A stretch of DNA of 60,411 nucleotides, filler included, from Squatina squatina (Eukaryota), in assembly GCA_031763465.1 (NCBI GenBank). It is 3 parts of 3 records of this genome, joined end to end, with 100 filler letters (N's around TTAATTAATTAA, not from the genome) between each part and the next. Parts side by side here need not be neighbours in the genome. Positions count along the whole stretch, not along the records: positions 1 to 19,783 come from JARFOE010000120.1; 2 more parts are not named here. One strand, given 5' to 3'. Under the pieces are notes generated by a model that was not told the origin of the DNA, searched no databases, and worked only from the letters and a program-made list of their open reading frames with translations. Numbering within the stretch: position 1 is the stretch's first letter; each line of letters opens with the position of its first letter. A program made the position numbers and the translations under genes. Shown here piece by piece: positions 1 to 27,795 of the stretch.

Positions 1-459
1 GATCGAGCACAGCCAGCAATCACAAGCGGAATTTATGTCAGTAAATATTTAACCTGAGGTAGATGTATAATTTTGTACAGTACTTTTGGATCAAAAATAT
101 TCACAAGCCTGTGACGCTCTCAAAACATTTTCAGCATTTTCCAACTATCTAAATAATCTTTGGGAAAGATGCAGAAATGTAATGTCTGTCGTCTAAATTG
201 CAGGGAAATTGCAGCGAACCCTACTGTACATGAAAGAAAGCTGTTTCTAGAAATATTTGCTGGGAAATGTAACTTGGTTGAGATAATTTGAAATGCTTAA
301 ATCTGTCTAATCCCGATTGCTTGTCCCAGCGGAGTTAGGGAACTGATCATCCTCTCACCACAAACCACATCTGTGCGTTTTCTCCCCATAGACTTGCATG
401 TGCTTAAAATTCACATTATGCACTGGGCACTCCTATTATTCTGAACTGTGTTTTCACAG

Positions 460-561
460 GAAGCTTTGGAAGATCGTTTAGAAAAGATCAATCGCGATCT
501 AGGATCGATCCGTATGACNNNNNNNNGGTTTCATGTTTTACGAACTTCTGCAAATTTGTAA
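460..561 (+). CDS. MPHOSPH9: M-phase phosphoprotein 9, terminal coding exon
   Basis: Acceptor ttttcacag, then EALEDRLEKINRDLGSIRMT-xx-RFHVLRTSANL* (8 N inside, frame preserved). Matches the recalled human C-terminus EALEDRLERINRELGSVRMTLKKFHVLRTSANL and lies upstream of PITPNM2 as in human. Confidence 0.92.
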   Translation, partial: EALEDRLEKINRDLGSIRMXXXXFHVLRTSANL

Positions 562-1040
562 ACTGTTTGCCATTCTTTATTTGACCAGATCATTACTTGC
601 ACTAAACTACATGTGTATGCACAATTATCACTGGCAGAAGGCGGGTTTAGTTTGGATCATCTCGGACTGAATGATGGCCTTAATATGTATATCTATATAT
701 TAGAGGTCACACTGTTGTATATGTAAAGCAAAACATTCTGTGCCTTTTTTAGGAAGTGTAGCCCATATCTCACAACTAGTTTTGTTATTAAAAATTGGAA
801 CCAAAACCCATACAAAATATATTTTAGTAATGTTTAGAGAGTGCACAATATCTGTACTTTTGTAAATGATATAGACCATATAGAAGTTAAAACGTGCATT
901 AAGATGTAAAATGTCTGTTACAATATATTTTGCAGACTTGGGATGTTTGTTTCTGAGAAATTTTTAATATTTTATATTTGAAGTTGAATACATTTTCTTG
1001 AACTAATTTTTTTAAAAAAATATATAAAAATGCAGTATTG

Positions 1041-1081
1041 AATAAACTGATAGGCCAGACTTGTTTAATTGTTACAATAAA
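1041..1081 (+). terminator. Candidate polyadenylation signals of MPHOSPH9 (AATAAA at 1041-1046 and 1076-1081)
   Basis: Two AATAAA hexamers at the end of a ~500-nt AT-rich stretch after the stop codon. Confidence 0.5.
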
Positions 1082-1704
1082 GTGTCTAAGTTCAGTGAGG
1101 ATATCTCTGAATGAAAAGCCACTTATTTACTTTTTTTTAGTAACTGCAACAAGTTTCAGATGGGAGCTATTAGCTAAATTAGCCAGTTAGCCGCAACATA
1201 ATGTCCCATCCAAGTACTTTGGCTAATCTCTCTCACCTGGAATCTGTTTATTGGTGGACAAGTAAAGCAAGAGATTGTTGCAACATGAACCTGTCTCTTA
1301 AAGAATAAATAAATAAATCAATAAGTATAAAGAGAAGGGGAGGGAAGTGTCAAAAAGAGTAGAATTAAGTAAAATGTGATGATTAAAAGAGACTGGAACA
1401 TTTAGCTGAAAGGAAGAAAATCTAACCAGACGTTTACTTCCCCCCCCCACTACCCCCCAACTTTCTCACCTCATGTACTGAAGGTGGTGAGTCATGCTAA
1501 GGTCATGGTGGCCACCAACAGCCCTCCTGTACCTGGCACAAGNNNNNNNNNNNNNNNNNNNNNNNNNNNNNNNNNNNNNNNNNNNNNNNNNNNNNNNNNN
1601 NNNNNNNNNNNNNNNNNNNNNNNNNNNNNNNNNNNNNNNNNNGTTGCAGGAGGGACCTGTTCTTGGTGTACACAAATGTCCTGGAACCACCCTCAATGTG
1701 AAAT

Positions 1705-1810
1705 TGCCTTGCATTACAACAGTGACTACATTTCAAAAGTACTTCATTGGCTGTAAAGCGCTTTGGGAAGTCCTGAGATTGTGAAAGGCACTGTATATTT
1801 GTTCTTTGTC
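1705..1810 (+). mobile_element. DeuSINE-type SINE, 3' fragment
   Basis: cattacaacagtgactacatttcaaaagtacttcattggctgtaaagcgctttggga...gaaaggcactgtat, the same tail as the copy at 16372-16771. Confidence 0.75.
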
Positions 1811-1914
1811 AGTTGAAGTCTCTCAATCTCACTTAACTGGCCGCATAATGCTTCTATGAATTCACCATTCTTCAAAATAATCATTAGAATTGTTTTTATA
1901 TATGTTGTCCACGT

Positions 1915-2040
1915 AAAGGAGAAATTTGCAGGGATGTGGTTAAAGAGCAGGAGAATGGGACAAATTTTCAAACAGCCGGCACAGCCACACTGGGCCAAAT
2001 GGCCTCCTTCTGTGCTGAAAGCTTCTGTGATTGATTCTAG
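1915..2040 (+). mobile_element. CR1 LINE 3' end fragment
   Basis: gggccaaatggcctccttctgtgctg 3'-terminal hairpin motif, shared with the longer CR1 copies in the window. Confidence 0.65.
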
Positions 2041-3424
2041 AATGAAAATGTACACCGGGAGAAGCGCATATTGATATTACTATAACAGCTTATGAACAAT
2101 GAAACTTAATTGCTATTGTAATATTTGACACTCAAATGCAACTTTAAACTAAACGAATATCTGACATTGCTCCTATGAAGCACCTTGGGACGTTTTAATA
2201 GGTTAAAGGCGCTATATAAATACAAGTCGTCATTGTCAGTCAGTAAAAACTGCACAAATTTCACCTTCCAAGTATTCTTGTTTAGCAATAGTTTTCAAAT
2301 TTAAAAAAATCAGGGCCGGCAGAGAATAGCTCAGATGTTTTGAATGAATCAACCCTCGCAGTGCCTTAATTCCCAGTATCTCCAGAATAAATGAAGAGAT
2401 CACTTTGTTGCATTTATCTTCTTTGACAAGAACAACTGTAGATCTCCGAGTTCATCCGCACGCATCACATGCAGTGCGTGTGTATATATACCAAATGACA
2501 CAATTAAACCAATTTACACATCAAAACGGTGGACAACCCATAATATCCAGAATTACCACTGTGCTTGCAGCTGTGCACCTGAGCCTCCTTACTGATTATT
2601 AATCCCAATCACCATAACAAGATCACGTCCTTCGTGACTTTTTGTCAGTTGATTGGTTGGAGCTTTGAACTATTTGGTGAGTCAGTTAATTGCTGATTGT
2701 TTGGGCGGTAGGAGGCTGCAACCGGTCAGGTTTGAATCCAGTCCTGTCGTTCTGTCTGATAACGCCCACATAATTATAGGTTCATTTAAACAAAGTGTCT
2801 GATTAATTTGCTAGGAAAGTGAATGTGGCAACCTCTGGTATATAGAGTAAACACATTCACTATATAGGGCTTAAGAGGCCATCAATAATTGTCCTTATTT
2901 TCACAAAACTAATGAAAATTCATCATAATATTTATGCTGTGTATACAAAGAGTGTTAACGGGCCTTTCCAAATACTCCTTGCCCTTTTATGAAAATGGCA
3001 ATTAGACATAGCTCTTAACAACTGCCAGTATGAATGATGTCAATAAAGTGTTGAAACAATAACAAGGCTGTGACCGACTTGGTATACTCACTTGGAACAT
3101 TCATCCTGAATTGAATTCTTTTCATGTACACTGGTTCCCGCTGCTAGTATCAAGTAACCGTCAAAGTTCACTGGGCAGAAGGAAGCCATTCGGCCCATCA
3201 TGTCTGTTCTGGGTCTTTGTTATAAGGACGGTTATTGGTGGCCTCTCAAATCCTGTATAGTAAATGTGTTTACACTTGGAGGTTGAACCTATAATTATGT
3301 GGCCGTTATCAGACAGAACGACAGNNNNNNNNNNNNNNNNNNNNNNNNNNNNNNNNNNNNNNNNNNNNNNNNNNNNNNNNNNNNNNNNNNNNNNNNNNNN
3401 NNNNNNNNNNNNNNNNNNNNNNNN

Positions 3425-4154
3425 CTTGGGACCTCCTCTTAGTGAGGACAGACAACCGCTTGAGGCAGAGAATGTTTGGAGAAAAAGACCTCAAACCCGG
3501 CACCAAGCTCATGGTCTACAGGGCAGCAGTGATAGCTGCCCTCCTGTACGCATCGGAGACATGGACAGTGTACAGCAGGCATCTCAAAGCACTGGAGAAA
3601 TACCACCAACGTTGCCTCCGCTTAATCCTGCAAATCAACTGGCAGGATAAATGCGTCAGCGTCCTCTCTCAGGCCAACACCCCCAGCATTGAGGCACTGG
3701 TCACGCTCAACCAACTGCGGTGGGCGGGTTACATCGTCGCATGCTTGATTCAAGACTCCCGAAACAAGCACTATATTCCGAGCTCCGTCATGGCAAGCGC
3801 CTTTGAGGAGGGCAGAGGAAACGCTACAAGGCCGTCCTCAAAGCCTCGCTGAAAAATTGCAACATCCCCACTGACTCATGAGAATCCCTGGCCCAAAACT
3901 GCCTGAACTGGAGGAGAAGCATCCGCGAAGGCGCCAACTGCTTCGAGCTTCTCCAGTGGGAGTACGTGGAGGCCAAGCGCAGGCAGTGGTAGGAGCGTGC
4001 GGAAACCCATCAAACACTCACCCCATCAAACACCACCTGCCCCACCTGTGGTCAAGTTTGCGGATCCAGTATGGGACTACTTAGTCACCTCAGAACCCAC
4101 AACTCGAGTGGAAACAAGTCATCCTCGACCCCGAGTGACTGTCTCAGAAGAAGA
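3425..4154 (+). mobile_element. RTE-clade LINE, frameshifted 3' part of ORF
   Basis: TKLMVYRAAVIAALLYASETWTVYSRHLKALEKYHQRCLRLILQINW and QLRWAGY motifs typical of the RTE post-RT region; C-terminal CPTC-x12-HLRTH at 4038-4100; short (GAA)n tail. Confidence 0.88.
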
Positions 4155-4159
4155 TGGCA

Positions 4160-4430
4160 GTTTGAGAACTTGAATTCAGTTTAAAAACAAAGTCTGCAAA
4201 TAAAAAGTTGGTTTCAGCTAAAGTGAGCTTTAAGTCCAACTAGTTCACTAATGCCCTTTAGGGAAGGAAACCTGTCGTCCTTTCCCGGTCTGGGCCTACA
4301 CGTGACTCCAGACCCACAGCAATGTGATTGGCTCTTAACTGCCCTCTGAAGTGGCCCAGCAAGACACTCCGTTGTAGCAATAGGGAGAGGCAATAATTGC
4401 CAGCCGTGCCAATTCTGAGAATGGATCATA
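4160..4430 (+). repeat. Unclassified interspersed retroelement fragment
   Basis: gggaaggaaacctgtcgtcc...gtgactccagacccacagcaatgtg resembles a common shark repeat as I recall it; family not assigned. Confidence 0.45.
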
Positions 4431-4444
4431 ATTTTTTAAAAATG

Positions 4445-4605
4445 AAAGCTTTCCTGCAGACTTAGTGGATAAATACTTGAAGGAAAAACATTTGCAGGCT
4501 ATGGGGAAGGAGCTGGGGAGTGGAATGAATTGGATACCTCTAACAAAGAGCCAGCACAGGCACAATCGGCCACCTTCTCTAGTACAACATTTGATGATTC
4601 TATAA
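4445..4605 (+). mobile_element. CR1 LINE 3' end fragment
   Basis: ggataaatacttgaaggaaaaacatttgcaggctatggggaaggagctggggagtgg (LDKYLK...GYGE..GEW end of ORF2); reverse-complement similarity to 57895-58170. Confidence 0.7.
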
Positions 4606-5283
4606 TTTGCACACTTCTGCCAGTTTTTCAAATTGTCTGTGCCAGTTGTTTACCTCAGTGTGGATGGAATTGGCAAGTCAGGCGTGTAACTGGAGAGAAT
4701 TTACAACTCTCATATACGATGAGCTGTAAATCCTCTTCATGGTTAACTTTCCCTTTGTGTGGGAGGAGTAGATTTGATACAGCACAACACAGACAGTCAA
4801 GCTACCAGTGGCCTCATTAAGTCTGATTGTTTTAATTTGTACAAAGGCTGTCTTAGTATAATGGGTCTGAGCATTGGGTGGGCAGTACTGAGAGATTTGG
4901 TTTCTCATTGCTTGAAGCTTTGCAAGCAGACTTGTTTAAATCCCTGGGTTTGAAATTTTTAATTAAATGTTGTAAGAGGAATATTTGGTGACTGTATTTC
5001 TACATCATGCAGCTGAGTGTAATGAATTCAAGCTGTCCATTACTGTGATATCAATCTGCATATTGAGGTTCGCAGAAATAGTTGGAAGCCTGATTACTGA
5101 TGTGATTATTAGTTTGGATATGGGAGATGGCTACTCCCCAATATAAAGGATTTATTTTACTGGGGAATTCAGAATTGTCTGTCAATGTTGCAAGTTTTTG
5201 GTGTGAAGAGGAACCTTGTCTAGTCGGATCTGTTTATTTATCGTGACGATATTACTCGCAAGTGATGAATGATGTGATTTGGT

Positions 5284-5405
5284 GAAATAAAAGCAGAAAA
5301 TGCTGGTAACACTCAGCAGTCGGGCAGCATCGGCCTGAAATGTTAACTCTTGTTTCTCTCTCCGCAGATGATCTGTTTCCAGCGTTTTCTGTTTTTATGT
5401 TCAGA
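5284..5405. mobile_element. Penelope-type terminal repeat, two partial copies in inverted arrangement
   Basis: aaataaaagcagaaaatgctgg... on the left and ...ccagcgttttctgtttttat on the right are reverse complements of the same repeat. Confidence 0.7.
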
Positions 5406-6484
5406 ACCGGTTTGATTTTCCAACAGCAAACGGAATAATTTGGAATTACTTACTAAGGAAGGGCATTCTCGCACACAGTGTAAATAGGTTTATATAGAGC
5501 AGAGGATATATAGGCACAAGATGCCCAAATTACTATCCAGTGGCTATTCTGGCAAGTGTACAGGGGTAAGCGTACAGCATTGGATAAGGACAGATCAGGG
5601 TCAATACAGCCAAACAGCCTGCTTACGTTCGCAGCCTTGAATACAAAAAAGAGCTAATGATCCATCTAGCCTGTTCCACATAGTTATGATGCCTCATGCA
5701 TCACAGTACACACACTCCACCCACCCGGAAAATGTACTCTCCCAGGAGAGGTTAAAAACCAAGGCCAATTAGGGTTTAAAAAAACATGGAAAACTCCTCT
5801 CCATTAATAACCTCTTAGACAATCGAAATACAGGAAATCACATTGACCCTGATTTAGATTACAGGTTAGCTACTACTTGTACAAGGTGATCTCTGTCCCA
5901 GCTAGAAACNNNNNNNNNNNNNNNNNNNNNNNNNNNNNNNNNNNNNNNNNNNNNNNNNNNNNNNNNNNNNNNNNNNNNNNNNNNNNNNNNNNNNNNNNNN
6001 NNNNNNNNNCAACCTGCCTGTAATTTGCGCAAACTGTCTATTAAGACTTCAGAATAACCAATGAAGCACCTTGGCAGGAGAAACAGATTCTGCAAGGTGG
6101 AAAGTTTTAAGAGAAATGACATGGCAGCAACTACAGCTCAACACTGACCGTTTTCAGCATGAGCGGTTATCCAAAATACAATGATTAGCTGTGTTAAACC
6201 AAGGACTAGTTCCCAGGGATTAGACGAATGGAGTGAGGTGGGCGCGAGTCAGACCCTGCTTTGTGAATTCTAGCCAATAGATCACAAAGGAAGTTAAGGT
6301 GGGTGGGTTGCAATGCAACCTATAGAATTAAGAACATTATAAATATTTACTTGGAATAGTGATTAACATGCTGCTGTTCCTTCCTTCTCCCTTCAGGTGT
6401 ACTTAATGAATCACAAGCTCTGAGGGTTTGCTGGCAGCCGTTGGATTATTTTTTAAATTGTGAGCGGACTTTCCACAAGACAAA

Positions 6485-6562
6485 ATGCTTATAAAGGAAT
6501 ACCACATCCCTCTTCCCATGAGTGTCGAGGAGTATCGTATCGCACAACTCTACATGATTCAG
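6485..6562 (+). CDS. PITPNM2: Membrane-associated phosphatidylinositol transfer protein 2, first coding exon (exon probably begins at 6397)
   Basis: MLIKEYHIPLPMSVEEYRIAQLYMIQ followed by GT donor; PITP-domain N-terminus; upstream acceptor ttccttctcccttcag. Confidence 0.93.
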
Positions 6563-7516
6563 GTATAATCTGTTGGTCAGAGATTGTAACTGGCTTAGAA
6601 TTAGACAAGTCCACTGATAGTTTAACCAGCTCCTCTTTCCTGATTGGGAGATGTTCAGCATTTCTAGTGACACAGAATTGGTTCTAGTGAGTGTGGCAAG
6701 GTGAATGTTTCCCAGCGTGACATTTACAAGAAAAGTGTTCCTTATCTCCAGACCTGTCACTGTGCAAGTCTTGTCCTGTACACTTTTTTGCATAACAGAA
6801 AACGACCGTTGAGATATGATCTAAACCGCATCTGCATGTTGTAAAAGAAGTCAATTCTCAGAATGTAAGCTTTGTAAAATAGCGCTGCATTTGAACCAGA
6901 AGTGACAGTTAAGCTGACTGCTGAAACAGATATTCTAAAGTAGTCAGACAGTCAGTGAAGCTGGTGTTCTGCTATAGATTGCGCTTGAAGATTAAAGGAC
7001 AAATATTTGCACAGGGCTATGAGTAAGCTAGGTTCCTATTTATACATCTTATGTTACCAAAGCCAAGGTGAGTGTTGCTTCTAATGTAAATTATTTTCAA
7101 ATATTCTGCATATAGATGACATACTGCATGATTTGCATAATTTATTAAAAATTTGACAATTTTTATTTAAAAAAAGTTATGTATTCATATCATTCTTGAA
7201 ATGTAATATCCTGATGGCAGCTTTTCTATGTTTGGCTTTCATTTGCTTAAAATCCAATAAACTTAGACACTGAATATCCTGTGTGCAGTGTTTGTGCACC
7301 AAGCTTAATTATACTCTCTCCCACATTTTTATTGAATATTATTGAAGTACAAGTTAAATCAGTTTCTCAAATGTCAGATATAATTACACCATATGGCTTT
7401 CTAGTCTTCAGATTAGNNNNNNNNNNNNNNNNNNNNNNNNNNNNNNNNNNNNNNNNNNNNNNNNNNNNNNNNNNNNNNNNNNNNNNNNNNNNNNNNNNNN
7501 NNNNNNNNNNNNNNNN

Positions 7517-7712
7517 TGTCCCATTCCCGCTCTCCTCTCTCTCTCCCTCCTGTCCCCTTCTCTCTCTCCTCCCTCCCACCTCTCACATTCACTATCTCCT
7601 ATCCCATTCACTATATCCTGTCCCACTCTCTCTCTCTCTCCTCTTTCTCTCCTGTCCCATTCTCTCTCTCCTCTTTTTCTCCTGTCCCATTCTCTCTCGC
7701 CTCTCTCACTTT
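7517..7712 (+). repeat. CT-rich imperfect tandem repeat (~30-nt unit ctcctgtcccattctctctctcctcttt)
   Basis: Repeated tgtcccat/tgtcccac + (ct)n units next to a gap. Confidence 0.85.
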
Positions 7713-8229
7713 TGACTTACCCTGTAGCTGCTGAGTGACGGAACCACATCCCTACAGTCTGAGGGGGTCACGGTATAGTGGCTCCTGGGGAACTATAGTC
7801 TTTCAGATCAGAAATGGACTCCTGTACATGTACATTTTGTTTAGACCAGACCACACCACATTGTGTAGAGACAGATGGCAGGGTGGGGATTGGGAAATGT
7901 GGGGGAACCAGAAACTGAGTAACCTGTTTTCAGTCCCACCTGTTTGTTGGGAGGACGGGGGTTGATGTTGGAGCCAAATTTTGAGGTAATTCTGTGAATA
8001 TTTTAATTGTTTATTAAATAATGCTTTTTATTTCTTTTTGAGGTACTCAGTGCAGAGGGTGAGGAAGTGTTTGCTGGATGTAACATGCAAATTCACTCGT
8101 GCTGGAATTGCGTAGAATTTTTTTGACAGGTGATGGAGATAAAATTCAAATTCGGGTATTTTACATGATATGATTGGTGGATAATAGAGAATAACCCATG
8201 AGAAAGGAGAAAATTAATGTCCTCTGAAG

Positions 8230-8500
8230 TGGACGTAAAGATCCCATGGCACTATTTTGAAGAACTAGAGGGGAGTTCTCCCCGGTGTCCTGGCCAATAT
8301 TTATCCCTGAACCATCAGCACTGAAAACAGAAGATCTGGTCAGAATCAAATTGCTGTTTGTAGGAGCTTGCTGTGCACCTATTGGTGCCACGTTTCCTAC
8401 ATTACAACCGTGACCACACTACAAAATAGTACTTCATTGGCTATAAAGCTCTTTGGGATGTCCTGAGGTCGTGAAAGGTGCTGTATAATTGCAAGTGTTT
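8230..8500 (+). mobile_element. DeuSINE-type SINE, core and tail (a second tail at ~8660-8730)
   Basis: gatcccatggcactattttgaagaactagaggggagttctccccggtgtcctggccaatatttatccct core plus the L2-like tail. Confidence 0.8.
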
Positions 8501-8984
8501 TTTTCACCTTTTTAAGTCCATTTGCAAGAAACACAAATCTGTTTATTCCTATGTCACTGGTCCAACATGAATTCAACTTCTGTCTGTCCCCTTTCCCTCA
8601 CCTAAATCCTTTGCATTCGCTCCACGATATCCCATATCTTGATATTTGGGAGGGAGCACAGCATTAATTGGCTGTAAAGCTCTTTGGGATGTCCTGAGGT
8701 TGTGAAAGGCGCTATACAAATGCAAGTCTGTCTATCCTCTGTTTTAATTTTTTTCTAAGGTGGGGCATGAAATATTTCTATTTTCGAAGACGGAAGCAGT
8801 TTCATTATTTTGAGTTTTGCGCGAATTATACCTTACAGAGCATGAGGAGAGCTCAGCTCTGGGCGCCATGGTTACCAGTGACGGCATGCAGTGTAATGTT
8901 GACAATGATTTGTGTGCAGTGTTGCTGTGTGACTGAGACTGGCCTGAGCTCAATGAACCAGAGATGGGTTGCTGATGTAGTCAC

Positions 8985-8998
8985 GTTGTCATAGCAAC
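8985..8998. promoter_or_regulatory. RFX X-box motif GTTGTCATAGCAAC
   Basis: Close match to the palindromic X-box GTTGCCATGGCAAC; second weaker site GGCGCCATGGTTAC at 8862-8875. Function not shown. Confidence 0.45.
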
Positions 8999-9635
8999 AG
9001 ATGCTGGTCCAGCAGTGTTCCTATATCTGTGATCGAGCTGCTTCCTATAAATAAGCATGCCAAACAACTGTCCTGAAATAGCAATTGAATGTTCTGATAT
9101 GCAAAACACATTTGATTGAATCAAAGATGAAATTAATTCCTTCTTAAAATGGTGAACCTAACATTTGATGGAGTAATCAATTCACAAATAGATTGAGAAA
9201 TTCAGAATTTATTGTTTTGACGTCAGCATTCCCTCGCATTCCCCACTCCAGCCATAAAAGGGTGTGCTGTCTGTCAGGTAAATGCTGCACTCTGCGCGCT
9301 ATCTTGCCTGGAATGCATTGATCATAAAAGGAAATGCTGGAAGGCAGAAGTGCTGAAAGCAGGCTACTAGTAATGAAATAGCTGTCAGAGCCAATAAAGG
9401 AATAGGATCGGTCACAGTCTGCAGGAGTGATTTGATCCGTGGAACAAGACCTCGAGTCAAGCATCATTCCTTCTCCTCACTGTGTAAAACAACCTGATTT
9501 TTTTAAGTGACTATCTTTCACTAATTTCCCCCGCTTCAGTAATTATAACCTTCAATAACTCCCCCCTGTCACTTCACACATGGGAAATAATTTTCTGATT
9601 TTATAAAAAAAAAAGGTAGGTGAGTTGCCTGTTTT

Positions 9636-9885
9636 GAAATAAAAACAGAAAATGCTGGAAATACTCGGCAGGTCAGGCAACGTCTGGAGGAACAGAGTTA
9701 ACGTTTCAGATCGATGACCCTTCGTCAGAACTGGAAAAGGTTAGAGATGTAACATGTTTTTAAGCAAGTGTAGGGTCAGGGAAAGTGGGGGAGGGGAGGA
9801 AAGAACAAAAGGGAAGGTCTTTGATAGGATGGCAGGCCGAGGAGACAAAAGATGCAAGGCAAAAGGAGATGGTAATGGGGGACAC
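9636..9885 (-). mobile_element. Penelope-like element terminal repeat, longest copy
   Basis: Same repeat as at 27796, 29661, 32460, 42385 and 45232, extended by a purine-rich segment. Assignment to Penelope-like elements is inferred from the hammerhead motif. Confidence 0.65.
9696..9732 (-). ncRNA. Minimal type I hammerhead ribozyme motif, intact core
   Basis: Minus strand AGUU-CUGACGA-AGGGUCAUCGAUCU-GAAAC-GUU-AACU: all core nucleotides present, stem I AGUU/AACU, stem II hairpin, palindromic loopless stem III, GUU cleavage triplet. Confidence 0.7.
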
Positions 9886-10489
9886 AATATTTTGCTTTTG
9901 CCTGTTTTGAAGCCTGATCTTGATATTCTGATTTGGCTGTTACAGGTTAACTCATCCACTTCTGTATCTCTCTCTTCCTCCCTCTGGGGAAGAGCATTGC
10001 CTGAGATTAGCTCTTCATTCAATTTACTCAGATGGCGTTCAGAATTCGCTGTGTGGAAGTCACAGGAGAGAACCTGCATTACAAAGATCACACATAACTA
10101 CAGATAAGGAAGACTATTAGCTAGTTGAATCTGCTCTAGAAACCTACCCAGCACCTAATGCTCTCGAATGGCTCAAATATTTTCCGCCACTCCCATTCCA
10201 GCGCGAATGTCCCAAGTGTCGACCACTCAGTTTGAAGTGCTTTCTGACATCAGTCCTGAACTCGCCGTTTACCACTTTATACCTCTGTCACCTTGTCCTG
10301 NNNNNNNNNNNNNNNNNNNNNNNNNNNNNNNNNNNNNNNNNNNNNNNNNNNNNNNNNNNNNNNNNNNNNNNNNNNNNNNNNNNNNNNNNNNNNNNNNNNN
10401 CAAGTTCCACCAACAAGCCTACACCATGTGAGGCAAAAGCAACAGTTTTGAGGCTGGCCTATTGTGCGAGCTTGCCAGCTGGAAGTTTG

Positions 10490-10610
10490 CTTATCGGTAT
10501 TTGCATTGTAAACAGTGACTACTCTTCAAAAGTAATTAATTGGTCATGAACTACTTTGAGTGCCCCAAGAATATTAAAAGGTGCTATAAATGCAAGTTGT
10601 TTCTTTCCTC
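10490..10610 (+). mobile_element. DeuSINE-type SINE tail
   Basis: aacagtgactactcttcaaaagtaattaattgg...aaaaggtgctataaatgcaagt. Confidence 0.7.
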
Positions 10611-11133
10611 TTTCTATTTAAATAGAAGAATTTGAATTTTCTTTGCTCCAGGGAACATTAACTGATGATGCAACTCCCTGAGAAAGTAACGTGAGAAATT
10701 TGAATAGCAGACTTAATTGCAATGCAAACGCAGGCAGGCAAGCCACCATACTTTGAGTTTTGGCAGTTAACCTCACCTGTTTCCAAATAAGGCAGGGAAC
10801 AGTTGCTCCACCCAAAAGGGCATACACCATCCATGTCTGGACTTATCCTTACAACCTCCATTTCATGCTTTTTCAGCCTAAGAATCACTGTTCACTCCTG
10901 GGTACTTGGCAAGCTTTACACAGCTAAAGACTCAGTTTTCTTCTGCTTAAACTTGCTAACATTTCAGACATACCTCCAAGGCTAAACAGCTTATCGGTAG
11001 TGTTTTGACTGGAATTAGTTTTACTCTTCAGGTTGAAGGTCTACTGCAACTCTTCAAATATGACTGACTTTTGCGCTGCATTAGAAATAAATAAGTCACC
11101 TAATGTACTTACTTTGTGCCTCTTGTGTACCAG

Positions 11134-11360
11134 ATCCCATTGATATTGTCAAAGACCCCATTCCTCCAAATGAGTACAAAACAGAAGAGGACCCAAAACA
11201 GTACAAGTCTATCAAGACAGGAAGGGGACCCCTATCTGATGACTGGATAGAGGAGTGCAGAAATAGGCCTGGGAAAATGCCAATTATGTGTGCGTACAAA
11301 CTCTGCAAAGTAGAGTTTCGATACTGGGGAATGCAGTCCAAGATAGAGCGATTCATCCAT
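11134..11360 (+). CDS. PITPNM2: PITPNM2 internal exon (PITP domain), 3' end lost in gap
   Basis: cag acceptor, then DPIDIVKDPIPPNEYKTEEDPK...RGPLSDDW...IMCAYKLCKVEFRYWGMQSKIERFIH. Confidence 0.95.
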
Positions 11361-11593
11361 NNNNNNNNNNNNNNNNNNNNNNNNNNNNNNNNNNNNNNNN
11401 NNNNNNNNNNNNNNNNNNNNNNNNNNNNNNNNNNNNNNNNNNNNNNNNNNNNNNNNNNNNTGTGCAATATAATCAAAGTCGACGTACAATGTAAAGTTTT
11501 GATTATATCGCCACTTTTTATCGGTTACTCTTTTAGCAACATACTAGAATTGATGGTTTTGTTTTCCTCTAACAACATTTCTTTGTTTCTCAG

Positions 11594-11689
11594 CAAGTCC
11601 TTCGCGTCACAATATAGCAGACTGGCGGATGCAGAGTATTGCTCGAGATTCTGATGACAGCTCGGATGATGAATTCTTCGATGCACAAG
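11594..11689 (+). CDS. PITPNM2: PITPNM2 exon containing the FFAT motif
   Basis: 96-nt AG/GT exon: SPSRHNIADWRMQSIARDSDDSSDDEFFDAQ. An acidic tract plus EFFDA is the canonical VAP-binding FFAT. Confidence 0.95.
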
Positions 11690-14415
11690 GTACAGAATAG
11701 CCAGTACCAAGGAAAAGGTCTGAAACCTTGATAACTCGCTCTGTGTAGTGATGGGTGGTGATGCAGGTATCCCAATTGCCAGTATAAACCTGCATTAGCA
11801 TCATGGTGGGGGTCAGAGGTACAGTGTCATCCTCCATTTTGGGCATACTTTCTGTATATTTTATCACTGACTGATTTGTGTTGCCTCAGTGTCAGGTCAA
11901 TAGTTTGTCAGGATCTACACCAACGGATATTGTTTGTAATTTCTGTACAGTAATTCTATGAAGGAGTGCTACATAATACTGGATTAGATAAATACCAGTG
12001 TACCTACCAATATTAGTCAGACATCGCTGATACCAAACTTGTATTCGTTTTACAGAAAAGAATGCAAAGCACGGTCTATAGATCGGTCATTGACCCGACC
12101 CCTCCATTACCTGGCTGGCGTGGTCACACAATTACCATCATTTCGTGTAACCGAGATTTAGAGTTACCGGAAACAGACCAGCCTCATTTTGGATATTACA
12201 CTTGTGTTACCAAAGCCCAGACTACATCAGCACATGGGGGAACTGGAGCAGTCTCCTTCAGTGATCTGATGCAGTATTGCGAAGGCTTGAGTATTTCTAA
12301 GCATTGCTAAGTGAAAATGTAGTTGCTGAGGTTCCATAGTCAGTATCATTTAATATTTAGCCCGAATGGTTAATTGAAAACTTGGATGAACTTTTTAACT
12401 ATGTACACCATTTAAAAAAAAAACGATTTCCTCACTCATTTGATTACACTTATCAACATGCTAAAATTTAAAGAATGTTATACAGCACATTGCCGATACA
12501 GTATCCTGTTATCAGCATGGGTATAATCAGTCCTAACTTGGCTATTGCACAGACAAATCCTGCACTTAATCCGACCTGTTGCTACCAATGGTTCTCANNN
12601 NNNNNNNNNNNNNNNNNNNNNNNNNNNNNNNNNNNNNNNNNNNNNNNNNNNNNNNNNNNNNNNNNNNNNNNNNNNNNNNNNNNNNNNNNNNNNNNNNAGG
12701 TTCCTTTCTCATTATTGTAGCACTAGCCTTTGTGTTACTTCTAGCTGAGAATAGTAACTTGACATTGGAAGAGAATAATGGGCCAAATGTTTATATTGTT
12801 CTTTCATTTAGTATCTATCCTGCCTTGTCTGGTTTTGCGCAACATCATATAGTTTCCTTCAACCAACAAGATGAGGCACAGAATTGCAAGCCAGTGAACA
12901 CCTCCGCATCCTACATTGCTGCTCCGCAATCAGTCATCACAGAAATGCTTCTCTCTTCCCCCAGAGTTAATTTGAACCGTCTCACCTCACAACCTGTCAA
13001 CAATTGACTAAACTAGTTGCAGTGTTAGCTGGTGATTGTATGTGTGAAACAAACCTGCTTATTTACCTCTTCATCCTTTACCTTCCCTGTCTTGCTATTT
13101 CATTAAAAGGATAGCCTTGTATATTAGAAGTTTGTTCTGTGATCATTTTCTGAGCAGTTGTTTTGAGTTTTATTACGACTTAAAGTAATAGTGCATCATG
13201 TTGCTCTCCTTATTCAATATAAGCTGACAACCTGACTTTAGAATTCTTATATACCCTATGTTAAGAGTAATGGCTTTTAAAATTTTTATATATATCCTTT
13301 AATCATTTCAGAGAAATTTACAGAGTACAATTTTATTTATGGCTAGACTTCAAAATATGACATAGAACCTAATCAAAAATCATTGTAATGAAATGTCTTT
13401 GATACATTAAACAGGAGCTTCCAGCATGAATGAAGTGTCCATTAAGCATGGGGTATGTAAATGTGTCGGCTTTTAATTGGTGTGTTTAGCTTGGCTTCTT
13501 GCACAATATAGTTTGTGGTGTGTTTCTGAGGAGGGTTTCTGAAGTTGTATGGTTGGGTACATTACCTTAACCATCTCGATTATATATCCTACAATTGTAG
13601 CATTGGAAAAGACTTCTGTTTCTGGTTCTTGTGTGTGGGTTATTGGAGTCTGATGTTAANNNNNNNNNNNNNNNNTGCAGCTTTAACCTACTGCTTTGAA
13701 ATTGTATGGTCTAAGGTGTGGATTTGTTCTGACAATTGTCAGAAAATCATGTTCAGATTTTTAGTATTTGTTTCACCAAAGCCCTCGTCACTCACCTAAA
13801 AGATATTAAAACTATTTAAGATTATTGGCACTGGATGAGCTGTTTCTCTATCGGACTGCTGTCTCTTGCTTTCAAATAATTTACGTCATCCACCAACTTG
13901 GATCATAATTTGTCAGTGTTACNNNNNNNNNNNNNNNNNNNNNNNNNNNNNNNNNNNNNNNNNNNNNNNNNNNNNNNNNNNNNNNNNNNNNNNNNNNNNN
14001 NNNNNNNNNNNNNNNNNNNNNNTGACAGTTTAAAATTAACATTCTTGTTGTAATGTTCCAGTAAGCAATTTTATTTATTTTCTATGTTCTTGCTGCTCCC
14101 TGTCTTTCTTGGAACTCCGCAGGGCTGCAGCTATATCAGGCAGCTGGACTGTCAGCTTCACATCAAAGGTGGGGGGTAGGTGGGGGAGGCGGTTCATTGG
14201 TTAGTTATTAGACACACGAGCTAATGGCTTCATCTCCCAAGCCCAAGAGTGCTGAAATCAATTGTAGCAATATTTCCTTCCTTGTACTGTAATCATTAGA
14301 CCTGATTTATCACAGTGGTGAGTATCTTAACCAAAGTGGTTTTCTCTGTACAAAATAATTTAGAGTGATCAGGAGAAAAAAAATCCTGTGATAATTTGTT
14401 GCATTTTTCTCTTAG

Positions 14416-14660
14416 GATGGAGCAGCACAACAAGCTTTTCAGTCTTGCAAGATTCACGTCCTCGTCCTCATACTGCATGGCGGCAACATTCTGGACCCTG
14501 GCAGTGGAGACCAAACCTCCAAGCAAGCTGATGTCAACACCATAACCTCTGTCTTTGACACAGTGATGAGAGTACACTTCCCTGCGGGACTTGGCCACAT
14601 CGCAGTCAAGCTGGTTCCGTGCCCAGCCATCTGCTCTGAAGCCTTTTCACTGGTATCGAA
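14416..14660 (+). CDS. PITPNM2: PITPNM2 internal exon
   Basis: 245-nt AG/GT exon: [81 protein letters not shown]. Confidence 0.93.
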
Positions 14661-15147
14661 GTGAGTTTTCCAGCTGGTGTGGTGCACAGGGATATAGTTA
14701 GTGGCCATGATAAATACACCACTTTTGTCTAATTTGTGCACCATCCTTGGCAGTTCACAAAAAGTTGCTAATACAGTATATGTAACCCACTTTACTAAAT
14801 GTGCTGAGATTTTACGTGTGTTTACATTGAAAAGGCACGGGCTATTTAAATGTTCCCCATTATTTAGAATCTGTCATTGCACAGAAAGCCTTTCTGTTGC
14901 ATTATTCATATTACTAACAAAATTATTGAGCGTGTTAAATTGTACGAAACAGAACAAACCACCATCCAGGACATTGTGAAATGCCATTTATTTTTATCAC
15001 AGTATCCTCATGTTTTTAAACAGTTAAAACTAGGAAAATGTGAAAGTTTTCCACGTGAGATTTATATTATCGCTGTTATACCTATATACCTGTTCATACA
15101 CTGTTATACCTAAACACACATACTTGTTCATACACTGCTGTATCCAA

Positions 15148-15781
15148 GAACATAAGAATCAGGAGCAGGAGCAGGAGCAGGAGTAGGCCATAAGGCCCTT
15201 CGTGCCTGCTCCGCCATTCAATGAGATCATAGCAGATCTACCTCAACTCCACTTTCCCGCCTGATCCCCATATCCCTTGATTCCCCTGGAGTCCAAAAAT
15301 CTATTTATCTCAGCCTTGAATATACTCAGAGACTCAGCATCCACAGCCCTCTTGGGCAGAGAATTCCAAAGATTCACAACCCTCTGAGTGAAGAAATTCC
15401 TGCTCATCTTGGTCTTAAATGGCCTACCACTTATGCTGAAACTGTGCCCCCTAGATCTAGACACTCTAGCCAGGGGAAACAGCCTCTCAGCATCGACCCT
15501 GTCAATCCCCTTCAGAGTCTTGTATGTTTCAACGAGGTCATCTCTCATTCTTCTAAACTCCATAGAGTATAGGTCCATTCTACACAAATCTCTCATCATA
15601 AGACAGCCCTCTCATCCCAGGAATCAAGCTAGTGAACCTTCGTTGCACCGATTCCAAGGCAAGAAGATCCTTTCTTAAATAAGGAGACCAAAACTGTGCA
15701 CAGTGCTCCAGGTGTGGTCTCACGAGACCCTGTACAATTGTAGCAAGACTTCCTTACTCTTATACTTCCAACCCTCTTGAA
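15148..15781 (-). mobile_element. CR1 LINE, 3' part of ORF2 and 3' UTR
   Basis: LYSMEFRRMRDDLVETYKTLKG...RNFFTQRVVNLWNSLP...GIKGYGDQAGKWS; terminal ttcttatgttctt repeat. Confidence 0.93.
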
Positions 15782-16371
15782 NNNNNNNNNNNNNNNNNNN
15801 NNNNNNNNNNNNNNNNNNNNNNNNNNNNNNNNNNNNNNNNNNNNNNNNNNNNNNNNNNNNNNNNNNNNNNNNNNNNNNNNNCAAAAACGAGAGGGAGAAG
15901 GGAGAAAGGAAGAGGTAGAGGGTGTTCCATTTGTGACTTGACCCTCCTGCCATTTCAGTTCAACTAAACAGGGAAACAAATACTAGCTTGTTTTTAAAAA
16001 CATTGAAGCGAGCGGATTGTTTGAGGTACCAGCATCTGCAACAGTCAACTGTGCAGATGTTTTAAATTCAAAAGTTTCCTATTTTGTTTTTTGCATGCTG
16101 GTAGATTGGTTCTTAAAGAAGTCAAATGCCTGCATTTCCCCTCATCACTCTCACACACACATTCAATTCCTTCACCTGGACCAGTCTTTCAAACATGAAA
16201 TGTTGATGTGTATGGTATACACTTCATTTTACTGTTCAGCACAGCATTTGCTTTTCGTTACTGAAATAACCATCCTGTCGTCTGCCCAGGGAGAATAAAA
16301 ATGTCCAGCACGATGTACAGAATCAGAGTTACCAGGCTCGAGGTACAAGCACATTCGCGACTTGTCCGTTA

Positions 16372-16771
16372 TCAGGTGTTAGCTGTGGTTCAGTGGGTGG
16401 CACTTTCGTCTGTGAGCCAGAAGGTTGTGGGTTCAAGTCCCACTCCAGGGACAAAATTTAAGATGACACTCCCAGTGCAGTACTGAGCGAGTGCTGCACT
16501 GTGTGAGGCACCTGTCTGCCTTCACAGGTGACTGTAAAAAAATCTCATAGCAATACTTTGAAGGGGAGCAGGGGAGTTCAGGACAATCAATGGTCCCTCA
16601 ACCAAAACCACTAAGAACAGATTATCTGGTCATCACCACATTGCTGGGAGGTTGCTGTGTGCAAATTGGCAGCTGTATTTCCTACAGGGACGACACTTCA
16701 AAAGTACTTAATTGGTTGTGAAGCACTTTGGGATGTCCTGAAAAAGTGAAATATAAATGCAAGTCTTTCTT
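16372..16771 (+). mobile_element. Near full-length tRNA-derived DeuSINE (SacSINE1-like)
   Basis: Pol III A box TGGTTCAGTGG (16386-16396), B box GGTTCAAGTCC (16430-16440), central core, L2-like tail ending atataaatgcaagtctttctt. Confidence 0.8.
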
Positions 16772-17244
16772 ATTTGTATAGACTTTGGATCCCCACAACC
16801 AGTGACTGCCTTATGATTTTTGTATTGTAGCTAATCTCCTGTGGTACTGCTCACAGATGGCCTGGGGTCTGAAGCACAATTGCCACCAACATGGCCACTC
16901 CCAAGACCATTGCTCATTTAGGTAAGCCCAAGTATTTGTAGCTTTCAGGGGTCTTTCAGTCATTATCCTATAGAGCATCTGCTACAGTCCTCCACTGTTG
17001 CAAGTAATGGATTCTCATGTGCAGTAGACCACTCTCCTAAAATTAACTAGTCTTGATGAAGACAACCAACCAGCTTTCAATGCATTCACTGAATTTACAA
17101 CAATTTGCATTTATATGGCACCTTTAACGTAGAAAGATTCAAAGGCATGAGAAAAATGGACATCACTAGATAATTATTAAAAATGCTTTGCTTTTACAGT
17201 TGTGTGCTTTTGCAGGTGCTAGAATTTGAAAATAATTTCTAAGA

Positions 17245-17795
17245 CACTAGTTAGGCCACAGCTAGAGTACTACATGCAGTTCTGATCACCACATTACAGG
17301 AAAGAAGTGATTGCACAAGAGGGGATACAGGGAAGATTTACAAGGATGTTTCCAGGACTGGAGAATTTTAGCTATGAGAAAAGGTTGGGTGGAGGCTTGT
17401 TTTCTTTGGAACAGAGGAAGAGATTTGATTGAGGTGTATAAAATTATGAGGGGCCGAGATAGAGTGGATAGGAAGGACCTATTCCCCTTAGCAGAGAGGT
17501 TAATAACCAGGGGGCCTTGATTTAAAGTCATTGGTAGAAGAATTGGAGGGGAGTTGAGAACGTTCTTTATCCAGAGGGTGGTGGGGGTCTGGAACTTACT
17601 GCCTGAAAGGGTGGTCAAGGCAGAAACCGTCATCACATTTAAAAAGTACTTGGATGTGCACTTGAAGTGCTGTAACCTACAGGACTATGGACCAAGAGCT
17701 GGAAAGTGGGATTAAGCTGGATAGCTCTTTTTCAGCCGGCACAGACACGCTGGGCTGAAAAGCCGCCTCCTGTGCCATAAATATCTATGATTCTA
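17245..17795 (+). mobile_element. CR1 LINE 3' fragment
   Basis: RDLIEVYKIMRGRDRVDRKDLFPL..., FFIQRVVGVWNLLP, and terminal ctatgattcta repeat. Confidence 0.92.
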
Positions 17796-18407
17796 ATAAT
17801 TTGAAAAGATAACAATCTGTACATTGTCACTGTATTGAAGGGTTTGATACTTCATTGCCTGTGAGAAGTACAAACAAAATTATTCTGCGCCGGAGTTTAT
17901 GTATTATGAATTGAAGTTTAAGGTCAGTTTGGTTCCCTGCTATTCTGTAATGTAAGGGTGCTGCACAGTGCTCATCTTCAGCATCAATGCATGTAACTGA
18001 TTGCAATACAGCGATCCTCACGTTTATTTTTTGCATTAGATTTTGTGCTTGATTCAAATCTTCAGGTTCGACCTGAGTTCACAGTACTTCTCCTGCCTCG
18101 TGTTTTGTCATGATCTGTGATTTCCTGTCATTCATTTCCACTCTCCGAGTAATTTGCTGCCATTTATTGGCCACACTGAGCCTCTGCACCACTGACACTT
18201 GGGGTAGGAGGTAGCATTCACTGAAACCTAGGACAGAATGGACCTTGCTTCCCAGCACCTCGGGTAGCGATCCCGTCTGTTGCTGTTTCCTACGGACATA
18301 CATTCCCTTTAATAGGTGCGCAGATTGGCAAGCTGAGGGTGTAATGTTGACAGGAAAATTAATTTAACAAAGAAGTGTAATATGAACACGTTTTTTTTTT
18401 CTTATAG

Positions 18408-18583
18408 TTTGCATTCTAGTGTTTTAAGGAATGATCCTGGCTCCAGGCGATCCAGCAGTTCCACCATGCTGGAAGGAGCAAGTCCCGGCAAGTTTGAATT
18501 TGAAGTGACCGACTTCTTTCTGTTTGGTTCCCCCTTGGGGCTGGTGCTGGCATTGAGGAAAACGGTTATCCCCAGCTTGGACG
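18408..18583 (+). CDS. PITPNM2: PITPNM2 exon, start of DDHD domain
   Basis: 176-nt exon: [58 protein letters not shown]; strong polyT acceptor, GT donor. Confidence 0.95.
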
Positions 18584-18750
18584 GTGGGTAGCTTGAGCGA
18601 TCCACTCCCTCTGTTTGTTACAGTGAAGCTGAAAGATCGCCCATTTCCTCAATAGTGTGTTACTTAGAATCATGAAAATCAAAGTTTACCTTAAGACATT
18701 TTGTCAAACCAAAGTCCATTAATTGTCACATCTATTCCATTCTTCACCAG

Positions 18751-18921
18751 TCTCCCAGTTGAGACCAGCGTGTCAGCAGGTTTACAATCTGTTCCACCCA
18801 GCGGATCCTTCGTCCTCCCGGTTGGAACCACTTCTGGAGAAGAAATTCCACCTGCTGCCGCCATTAAACATTCCCCGCTACCAGCGATTCCCACTGGGTG
18901 ACGGCAGCTCGGCTCTTCTGG
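18751..18921 (+). CDS. PITPNM2: PITPNM2 exon, DDHD domain
   Basis: 171-nt exon: [56 protein letters not shown]; phase matches the previous exon. Confidence 0.95.
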
Positions 18922-19338
18922 GTATGCACACTTTCAGTCAGCAACTCACAGCTACCAGTTAACATAGTTAGGTACCCTGTTCACATTGCAGTGTGTACAT
19001 GTTTACCAGTAACTATTCTGCCGGATGTTTTGCGAGTAAGTTATTAATAATTAGCCAATGTGATCGTAACTGTGACCATGCAACACGTGCTGTGTGTAGA
19101 AAGTGTTTCAATCAACTACAACATGCATGAGGAAATAAAACGTTCGGTGGTGTCCTGGTTCACAGACAGACAGACTTTAATTGTTCGGTGTTTTCTATGA
19201 AATGTTGAACGTTTCTGGGTCTACATAAAAGAACTCTGCAAGGCTGAAGTGATAGGAAATACCGGTCACTCAGTCTGCAGTGGGAAACAAAACGTTCATT
19301 CGACCATTCCTGTCTTAAATATGTAAATATTCCTCCAG

Positions 19339-19380
19339 TGGAGCAGCAGCAAGAAATGGGAGCTTGTCAGGAGAAGCTGT
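19339..19380 (+). CDS. Candidate 42-nt cassette exon of PITPNM2
   Basis: ttcctccag acceptor, perfect gtaagt donor, phase 1-1, open frame VEQQQEMGACQEKL. Confidence 0.4.
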
Positions 19381-19783
19381 GTAAGTGTTAATAAAAACTG
19401 CAGGGGGCCTTAACTCGATTCTCCATCATTATTATTAATGCAGGGGTCGCTAAGACACTGTGTACTCTGTTTTGTGTCTCAACAAGTTTGCATTTGTCTG
19501 CAGTTTTAAACGAATAAAGTTGACCCTTATGGTGTAGCACACCTAAAAGCAGTTAAGTTAAAATATATAAAGCTTAGTCTATGAACTATTTCAATAGCAT
19601 AAAGATTAATTATAAAATACAAAAAGCAAAGCTGTCGGTGTTCTCCACAAGCGGTTGACTGTGATGTTCATGGTACAGTTTGTAGTTGGATGTTTGTCCT
19701 TTTTGTTTTTTTCCCTGTATTTGTCTGACTGCCACTTTTACTTTTTACCTTGCTACCTATTGATTCTACCCTCATTTTACACC

Positions 19784-19883: not shown

Positions 19884-19956
19884 ACCTGCTGAGTTTTTCC
19901 AGCAATTTTTGTTTGTATTCTAGATTCCAGCATCCGCAGTATTTCGCTTTTGTATT
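19884..19956 (+). mobile_element. Penelope-type terminal repeat fragment
   Basis: acctgctgagtttttccagcaatttttgtttgtatt, identical to part of 29661-29736. Confidence 0.7.
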
Positions 19957-20629
19957 AGTGTTAATCTTTGTTCAGCCTTATTATTGCTCTCTTGCAAGTA
20001 GAAAAACAGAAAGCCGAGAGAAACAGTTACTCTCACTTTATATCAACCATTAGTGATATGAATTGTTGCAATGAAAGGAGCTCACGGGTGTGGGTGTCAC
20101 ACTGTGTCAGAATATTGTCATTCTCCCTCTGGAGACTTTCAGAAGAACTAAAGATCCTCTTTCTCTATTATTGCCAGTTAAAGGTTACCAAAGTGAATTG
20201 AATGCTGACTATGAGTCATAGAACAAATCTTACTCTGAACCTGGCACTGTTTTCTGCAGTCTGTGCCTGACAAGCCACAGGATAAAGAATTTAAAGAATT
20301 GAAAGGTCACATCAATGTTGGGGTGTCAATATCAGCAACATGTTAGCTGTGAGATTGATGATCCACAAGACTGACATAGATTGCAAAGCCATTTAAACAT
20401 TATTGAGCTGTGTTTATTTTTCAAAGTGACATACAGGCTGGCCAGTTATACTGTTAAACCAAACACTTGCTGTGGTTCACTGATGGGAGTGAGGGTATTT
20501 TATTCCAAAACTGTGCATGGAGGTGCACTGGTGGCAGGATCACAGAATTACAACACACACATTCTGCACCTGATGCTAAAATGCTCAGAATTGCTGCCAA
20601 GAGCAAAAATCGTAATAAATCCATTGAAA

Positions 20630-25591: not shown

Positions 25592-27795
25592 TTCCAGGAA
25601 CTTGGTGATACAGCATCAGAACTGCATATACAACAGGAACCTCATCATTACAAACCTCATATTATAATGAAAAGTGGATACTTTCCAAACAATTCAAGGA
25701 TTCAAATCCCAATAAGCTTAGTTTTTACTCTTGGAAAAACTACTTTGGCAGCTCATGACTTTGAGTTAATAAGGTTCATGGCTATGTGCATCAGACCATA
25801 GATGAAATAAGCATGAAAGAGGGAGAATAAAAACTGCAATAGAAATAATTCACAAAGAAATAAGACTGAATGAGAATGCATACAAAATGGGGGGAAAAAG
25901 CAAAGATAATAGAAAACAAACAGACTCAGAAATCACGTGCATCCAATCATTATTGAATGAACACAACAAGAAATATTGTCAACTTAAAGACTAACTTACT
26001 TCTGTCACACACAAAGCCCCACCATTTATCAAACCCACAGCCAGCCAGCTTTGTGTGTGTTAACTAAGAGCTACCATACTCATAAAGATTTGATCGCAAA
26101 CTAAATGAGGATAATTTTCTGACTTTGCTCCCAGTGGGGAGCTTTGCCTGCCGAGAGCACACATCGTAAGTTCCAACAGACATTGTGCACAATTTTATGA
26201 CCTTTCAAAATAAGGGTTGGAAAATTATACACTACACAAGCCAGAATTTCCGATGTACACTCTCAGTTGTCAAGGCTCCCCGCTGGGGTGTAAAGTACAA
26301 AAATTACCTCCAACATCCCAAGATTATAATTCTCAGTCCAAGTCAAGTACTTCCACTNNNNNNNNNNNNNNNNNNNNNNNNNNNNNNNNNNNNNNNNNNN
26401 NNNNNNNNNNNNNNNNNNNNNNNNNNNNNNNNNNNNNNNNNNNNNNNNNNNNNNNNNAAAATATTATATTAATAATTAATAGAAGTAAAGCCATGATATT
26501 TTAAAGTAAAGTTCATGTAAATGACTGAAGACTATTTGCAATATGCTTTAAATAAAACAAATCCTGTGCTTTTGGACTTTTTGGTGCATCAAGATGACAG
26601 TCAACCTGAAAGGACTATTATGTAGAACACGCTCCTCGGTGACATTGCTTTGATTCGTTTAAAATTAATTGTTAATCTAATACTTTTCATTTCCCTCTTC
26701 ATTTTGTGCAGTGACAGTTGATTACCCTCTGAGTGATGAATATCCTTGTTGTAGAACGTGCTATTACCAACTATTGTTAATAATACTGTGTAGAATTATA
26801 ATGAAGGCCTTAGGAAGCGTTACCAGCGCAGTGCAAGGTATATTTTTCACATTAAGTAGCTTGTTTTACAGGGAATGATAAACTGTAATGCATAAAATAA
26901 ATGAGCATTCCTGCATTATAAATTATTTAAAACATGGTCCATGTGAACGTTGGATGAATTTGATTGCACAGATTTAGAAGAAGCAAAAATAAACACATTT
27001 CTTAAATATCAGTTTTATGGAGTCCATTACAGTTAACCAATCTGATGGACCAAAAGCTCAGCCATTACTGCATGACAAAGCGCTGTAGTTTTGGAATAAG
27101 CTTATATAAAATAGCAGAGTGAGCTCTTCAATGATTACTATTTCCTTGATTTTACCTTGTCTGTAAAACATAACATTCATGCACTTTAAATTCATAGATT
27201 TTCAAATGCAGCCACCCGATCTTGGATGGGCAGAGACATATTTCTGTTATTTTCTGTATCTGTTGACTTAATAGTACATTATTTTTGTTGTTCTATACCA
27301 ATAAAGAAATATTTTCAGCAATGATAGCACCATTTTGCTTTGGGTAGCTGACAGTATCTCTTGATTTTTAACACAGAAGTGTCACTATTTGCAGACCATC
27401 CCCGATAGAAGTTTTAAAACCACTACTTTCATCAACCTGAGATCTTCTGTTCAAGCAAAAGAATATATGGTGGGGGCGGGGGCGGGGGCTGCAGGGGGCA
27501 GGTGGGCAAGGGGGTAGACAAACCCAACCCGCCCAACATGAAACTGATGGGATCCAATTTGCCGCCCCATTTTACACTCTGCTTGATTTTGACTTCAGTG
27601 GAAAGTGAAATCGCGCNNNNNNNNNNGTAGGGTAGATAAAAATACTCGAGTAAATGACCACAAGGTGAAAGATTCTGCTCCTCTCTCTTAAGGAACTGCT
27701 ACCTCCTATTCCACTATAGCCTTAAACTATAAAACAAACAGCATGAAAACATACTGCAAGTAACATCTGCAGGGAACGGTAGCATACCATTTATG

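Follow-up and report, generated by a model that had tools for sequence, protein, structure and literature searches.

A minimal hammerhead motif, very probably part of the end repeat of a Penelope-like retrotransposon, in a lone truncated and likely inert insertion antisense to a host gene of Squatina squatina

A minimal type I hammerhead motif in the genome of Squatina squatina very probably belongs to the end repeat of a Penelope-like element (PLE), and the copy described here lies in a lone, truncated and likely inert insertion on the strand opposite a host gene. The motif was read on the minus strand from 9732 to 9696 of the window, i.e. of the whole stretch of DNA analysed (60,411 nucleotides with filler, three joined parts of assembly GCA_031763465.1), and falls into its first part, stretch 1 (1-19783; the beginning of its contig, JARFOE010000120.1). 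A loose hammerhead core pattern matched the window once, at 9700-9728, while 0.02 matches were expected from 100 shuffles. The parts of the motif are as follows.

9696..9732, minus strand: minimal type I hammerhead motif (letters and pattern match; register after PMC4209133)
9732-9729 with 9699-9696, minus strand: stem I (AGUU/AACU, 4 bp)
9728-9722, minus strand: core box CUGACGA
9721, minus strand: extra unpaired A (register after PMC4209133)
9720-9716 with 9712-9708, minus strand: stem II (GGGUC/GAUCU, 5 bp, two G-U pairs)
9710..9710, minus strand: C-to-U change that turns a stem II G-C pair into G-U in the window copy (comparison with sister copies)
9707-9704, minus strand: GAAA
9704-9701, minus strand: ACGU, loopless palindromic stem III
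9700, minus strand: H17
9699..9700, minus strand: predicted cleavage site after GUU (hammerhead numbering applied to the motif letters)

Both core boxes (CUGANGA and GAAA) and an NUH triplet are present in the window copy, and all 11 core positions and both stems are able to form. The preliminary description had read the same minus-strand letters, conserved core, 4-bp stem I and GUU triplet, with a stem III consisting of the loopless ACGU, and these readings were confirmed. It had also described a stem II hairpin, which is present, but A9721 lies outside it as the unpaired base, leaving 5 bp of which two are G-U. Its term 'intact' holds for the core only: at position 9710 the window copy has U, whereas 120 of 147 copies form a G-C pair there, and a deletion of about 6 nt lies just 3' of stem I. 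The pair 10.1-11.1 is G-U in the window copy, as in 102 of the 147 copies, and G-C in 30. These 147 distinct copies, which served for all comparisons of variants, were partly chosen by their core. The energy of stem II was -1.5 kcal/mol in the window copy compared with -4.1 and -5.8 kcal/mol in two sister forms; in-context folding gave the hammerhead stems a near-zero probability in the window copy and likewise in a sister copy whose stem II is better, and thus does not separate the two.

The Rfam search suggested in the preliminary description returned no hammerhead match, neither for the whole window (E<=5) nor for 9600-9900 (E<=10), presumably because the Rfam models need a closed stem III. 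An Rfam match to the CPEB3 ribozyme at 40665-40748 (minus strand; E 3.4, far below its cut-off) was ascribed to chance. Motifs of this kind are already published. The minimal hammerheads described from PLEs share with the window motif the CUGANGA box followed by an extra base, G at 10.1, GAAA, a loopless palindromic 15.2-16.2, a 4-bp stem I and a U-rich 5' flank, and the published list includes GUU sites and G-U at 10.1-11.1 (PMC4209133). One hallmark of these hammerheads given there is a base left unpaired between positions 9 and 10.1, and their location in pseudo-LTRs (pLTRs), mostly as single dispersed copies, is that of the shark family. In comparison with this published set, stem II has 5 bp and a 3-nt loop in the window copy, and the present analysis measured the spread of 5' ends. 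The searched part of its supplement contains no shark entry (PMC4209133), and no shark report of PLE hammerheads was found in the literature searched, which excluded Repbase, Dfam and most subscription papers.

The preliminary description had called the repeat abundant, which was borne out: a 32-nt motif of its tail had 6,686 exact genome matches (reversed control: none), so the family has at least that many copies. The genome-wide descriptor search it had proposed gave 826 matches to a generic core pattern compared with 22 for the reversed control; 826 is an undercount, as the last letter class of the pattern does not admit the form seen most often, to which the window copy belongs. From the exact matches and a decay of about 7% per site, the family probably comprises tens of thousands of copies. 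Identity to the window copy is 82-89% for the 39 best other copies. For an estimate of decay, 170 loci were chosen without regard to the ribozyme, 31 of which span it. The whole core was kept in 14 of the 31 (one of these 14 without stem II), and core mismatches (24/341 sites) compare with 39/526 in the 3' flank. By these counts the core decays neutrally, like its flank, and the window copy is ordinary rather than special, intact cores being common.

Among the 147 copies, the unpaired base between 9 and 10.1 is A in 144, and the C-G pair of the ACGU palindrome is present in 131. Variants reaching 10% within the motif are found at N7, in loop 2, at 11.1 (U/C opposite G) and at 1.1 (A/G opposite U). 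The common variants preserve the fold and are all one-sided (G-C/G-U, U-A/U-G), and some of them may stem from CpG decay. Two-sided changes occur in 11/147, each in a single copy, and several of these are flank artefacts. Core and stems are kept in the family, but covariation thus lends little support, and it is the architecture and the position of the motif that carry the case for a hammerhead.

Extension of the repeat towards a linked ORF for reverse transcriptase (RT) and GIY-YIG nuclease, also suggested in the preliminary description, was successful. Upstream, longer copies continue into the last part of a GIY-YIG nuclease, a CX4CxxC linker with a CCHH motif, and RT motifs. One contig (L084) carries thumb, linker, nuclease, stop, a 241-nt UTR and the ribozyme, and a chain of DNA overlaps of 77-90% identity leads from the window through L303 (repeat, 5' UTR and ORF start), L278, L263, L065 (RT motifs) and L084 back to the window. 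The element was reconstructed from these overlaps, and no single contig holds the whole of it. A 236-aa RT piece had 225 relatives, the best of them from sharks and rays (60-65%), many with RVT_1 (PF00078) and some also with GIY-YIG (PF01541); a Pfam scan of seven decayed ORF pieces gave only GIY-YIG, at E 0.035 and below the cut-off. In a set of 52 contigs with the ORF start (from 54 matches), the ribozyme region precedes the 5' UTR in six (L303, L317, L327 and others). Since this region thus stands both after the nuclease stop and before the start of the ORF, the repeat qualifies as a true pseudo-LTR, present at both ends of the unit. The overlaps therefore indicate that the motif's repeat is the pLTR of a PLE that encodes RT followed by a C-terminal GIY-YIG domain, as one of the two origins considered in the preliminary description had it.

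The element likely belongs to the Neptune clade, because linker and CCHH motif fit Neptune or Nematis and the vertebrates sampled show only Neptune and Poseidon (10.64898/2026.07.22.740005). RT with C-terminal GIY-YIG, a CX2-5CxxC linker and a CCHH motif are common to Neptune and Nematis, for which partial tandems, inverted 5' pieces and an optional tail of about 30 nt are likewise described (PMC8557442); the shark element also shows partial tandems, inverted pieces and an optional tail. No sign of the microsatellite preference described for these elements (PMC8557442) was noticed on reading through the junctions here. Poseidon elements, as far as described, have no linker motif, in contrast to the shark element. 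In PAc, a Poseidon element of the green anole, two preferred 3' ends bracket the tail, as here, but its ORF starts inside the ribozyme (PMC11167929), whereas the ATG of the shark element lies about 168 nt behind the core. An ATG in the tail was considered as ORF start and rejected, as about 135 nt more separate the tail from the stretch first taken to follow it. In L327 and L303, the ATG of the element directly follows a pyrimidine tract and CAG that lie about 150-170 nt behind the core and resemble the 5' UTR introns of Penelope and Chlamys. Three predicted shark or ray proteins (P0003, P0004, P0006) derive wholly or partly from the element ORF; two of them are named after host genes (chitinase domain protein, divergent kinase domain 1C) and are either annotation chimeras or exonised pieces. 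L263 and L266 share the element plus 680 nt of flank at 92%, reflecting a duplication or two haplotypes.

In the window, the motif's repeat forms a 259-bp 5'-truncated insertion at 9639-9897 between identical 14-bp target duplications. The insertion and its surroundings comprise the following features.

9625..9638: target-site duplication, copy 1, 14 bp
9639..9695, minus strand: 3' part of the pseudo-LTR, which ends at the first of the two 3' ends common in the family
9733..9880, minus strand: 5'-truncated 3' UTR of the element, including a U-rich tract and, at the front edge of the ribozyme, a YCAGTT box
9885..9900, plus strand: short stretch of the element's tail extension in inverted orientation, located at the 5' junction (15/16 letters)
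9898..9911: second copy of the target-site duplication, 14 bp, identical to the first
5283..5410: closest further piece of the family in stretch 1, two tail fragments inverted relative to each other that lack the 5' half of the core
6485..6562, plus strand: first coding exon of a PITPNM-like gene (IP_trans 1-26), GT donor at 6563
11134..11360, plus strand: later exon of the PITPNM-like gene (IP_trans 139-208)

Among 141 plus-strand frames scanned, two gave IP_trans and two DDHD, with IP_trans profile positions 1-26 at 6464-6565 and 139-208 at 11091-11360. From the order of its domains we take the host gene to be PITPNM-like. Splice signals fit for the exons 6485-6562 and 11134-11360; exons for IP_trans positions 27-138 were not found in stretch 1 and probably sit in assembly gaps. 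Further exons were seen at 14416-14661 and 18337-18959 (plus strand; DDHD among the exon domains), and an FFAT-like EFFDA stretch near 11670-11690. The insertion falls between the two IP_trans exons, so that the 'intronic' of the preliminary description was correct, but it had left unmentioned that the insertion is on the strand opposite the host gene. Hence, the host pre-mRNA carries the complement and not the ribozyme.

Eight further family pieces lie within the window, among them those at 42412-42514 and 32465-32568, which start 3 nt before the core, at 27793-27865, with an inverted arm also ending at the ribozyme edge, and at 29661-29736, 45228-45310, 19884-19967 and 5283-5410. No same-strand partner core was found in stretch 1, where assembly gaps could hide one. 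Three contig-only sequencing runs cover the repeat but not its unique flanks, and neither ends nor strand can be read from them. Elsewhere in stretch 1, at 3427-4181 (plus strand), a different retroelement has left its 3' end, which is decayed and includes a C2H2 zinc finger. The window copy is a lone, truncated and likely inert insertion.

To describe where copies begin, positions were counted from C3 (9728) as 0, with stem I starting at -4 and the predicted cut between +28 and +29. A first set took the first 90 of the 100 tail matches listed; 47 end in assembly gaps and 43 have a readable 5' junction. Seventeen of these 43 ends fall at -5..0, which corresponds to 0.090 per base at risk compared with 0.003-0.013 elsewhere. 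Because this zone was picked post hoc, a second set was drawn with another anchor (90 of the 100 matches listed, 12 repeats of the first set dropped, 46 readable ends), and 12/46 ends fell at -5..0 (0.051 per base versus 0.014 at +1..+20, p 0.001). The peak was broader in this set, about -9..+2, and the pile-up is wider than one base. Copies starting at the edge include both tail types (9 and 9) and have mutually unrelated flanks, with target duplications in several, and many copies are only 100-135 nt long and begin at the ribozyme edge. At six inverted joints (L451, L463, L468, L490, L497, L500) the microhomology is the 4-nt AGUU/AACU complement of stem I. An end cluster at -165..-185 was left unused, as it partly reflects the limit of the references. 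No literature on truncation points of PLE copies was found.

Many sister copies begin at the front edge of the motif and were therefore likely reverse-transcribed from uncut RNA. Ends in the cut-site zone were few (2/43 in set one at +24..+29). Genome-wide, 78 raw matches start at +29 compared with 11 at +30; 50 of the 78 were inspected and comprised 20 with unique flank, 18 internal deletions, 11 inverted arms and one that was too short. From this, the numbers were estimated at 26-28 for +29 and 6-8 for +30; with a null ratio of 1.9, p was about 0.03-0.26 across the values tried. A cleavage footprint was therefore not accepted as established, and any excess at the cut site does not go beyond 1-2% of the roughly 3,900 copies that can be compared.

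The pile-up at the edge can be read in several ways. The YCAGTT box at the front edge matches an initiator as well as a splice acceptor. It is conceivable, and we hold it tentatively, that the 5' end of the RNA lies at the first base of stem I, on this initiator-like box. Together with such a start, RT priming inside the tail would yield the 100-135-nt insertions of ribozyme plus tail in both subfamilies, and the hammerhead would mainly act as a structure that begins the RNA and stays uncut, with cleavage in no more than 1-2% of the copied templates; this combination is offered equally tentatively. None of the six ORF-linked repeats starts at the ribozyme front edge, which together with a peak more than one base wide speaks against a simple start site. 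Trimming of ends up to a protected structure is a rather unlikely cause, and a stop of the RT, or microhomology, at the U tract is unlikely. A splice-related origin appears distinctly improbable. In fly Penelope, an intron is described as ending at the ribozyme front edge. Spliced RNA as the source of the edge copies was rejected here, since 35 junction flanks matched the upstream UTR of the element no better than shuffles did, and no joined first exon was found upstream of the edge copies in these flanks. By eye, about 12 of the 52 ORF-start contigs (L278, L281, L283, L285, L289, L298, L304, L309-L311, L314, L323) start no more than about 22 nt from a second acceptor-like site, which lies some 35 codons inside the ORF and may mark a further preferred 5' end.

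A chance resemblance of the repeat to a hammerhead would agree with the lack of an Rfam match and with the rarity of two-sided compensatory changes, yet the excess of core-pattern matches over the reversed control, the presence of every published hallmark where it is expected, and the confinement of common variants to tolerated positions make it a negligible prospect; as far as sequence allows, it seems already refuted. The preliminary description had also considered a retrozyme-like unit, i.e. a non-autonomous element whose short tandem units excise themselves, circularise and re-insert. The many 100-135-nt copies would suit such a unit, and pLTR-derived retrozymes are reported from one chondrichthyan (10.64898/2026.07.22.740005). 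Non-LTR retrozymes and newt satellite hammerheads are likewise type I, dimer-dependent and related to pLTRs, but they are tandem and non-coding (10.64898/2026.07.22.740005; PMC6155905), whereas the shark family consists of dispersed copies linked to an ORF. None of 90 copies had another core on the same strand within 1.5 kb (same-strand tail bits in 2/90, an inverted piece in 14/90), though in an assembly of 1.15 million pieces tandem arrays would be collapsed and short contigs may hide them. Moreover, unit ends do not coincide with the cut site, the window copy continues into the 3' UTR of the element and longer copies continue into the nuclease. A retrozyme is hence very improbable, and this suggestion was not upheld.

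Equally remote is the idea of an active or co-opted ribozyme in the window copy, cutting RNA of the host locus in cis or in trans with RNA of the family. The complete core with two formable stems would allow it, and the presumed tens of thousands of copies could supply partners, but the motif lies on the strand opposite the host gene, intact cores are common in the family, stem II is weakened and the shared ACGU duplex contributes only about -1.7 kcal/mol. Minimal hammerhead dimers show low activity (PMC4209133), and 1/9 frog dimers cut (10.64898/2026.07.22.740005). The preliminary description had suggested competence in a dimer; as the copy is antisense, has no partner in stretch 1 and is weak in stem II, dimer competence is unlikely to matter at its locus. 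A domesticated intronic hammerhead of the RECK type was also rejected, given the antisense position, the at least 6,686 copies and the neutral decay of the family.

For the preferred reading, an insertion of a PLE pLTR, a course of events can be proposed. The element's nuclease would nick the target site, and the RT would prime inside the RNA at the tail and stop after about 245 nt; a second, short priming on the other strand would leave the inverted tail piece, and the inserted copy would then decay neutrally. The PAc nuclease cuts AT-rich DNA, and its RT primes at two RNA-internal tail sites on either strand (PMC11167929), which fits the two common 3' ends and the inverted piece at 9885..9900, as well as the inverted pieces of the family; insertions carry an uncut ribozyme in both systems. 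In a pLTR-ORF-pLTR parent, a single RNA would carry one hammerhead on each side of the ORF, and the ACGU palindromes of the two would pair into a stem III, probably aided by the element's protein. PLE hammerhead cleavage is protein-assisted and dispensable for insertion in vitro (PMC11167929). Since the motif is uncut in most copies, most insertions would do without cleavage, which would also be slow.

By itself, the copy at 9696..9732 matters little. The function of PLE hammerheads has been called unclear (PMC8557442), and the family provides a count-based handle on what they do: its thousands of junctions record the ends of template RNAs, and these point to the front edge of the motif rather than to the cut site.
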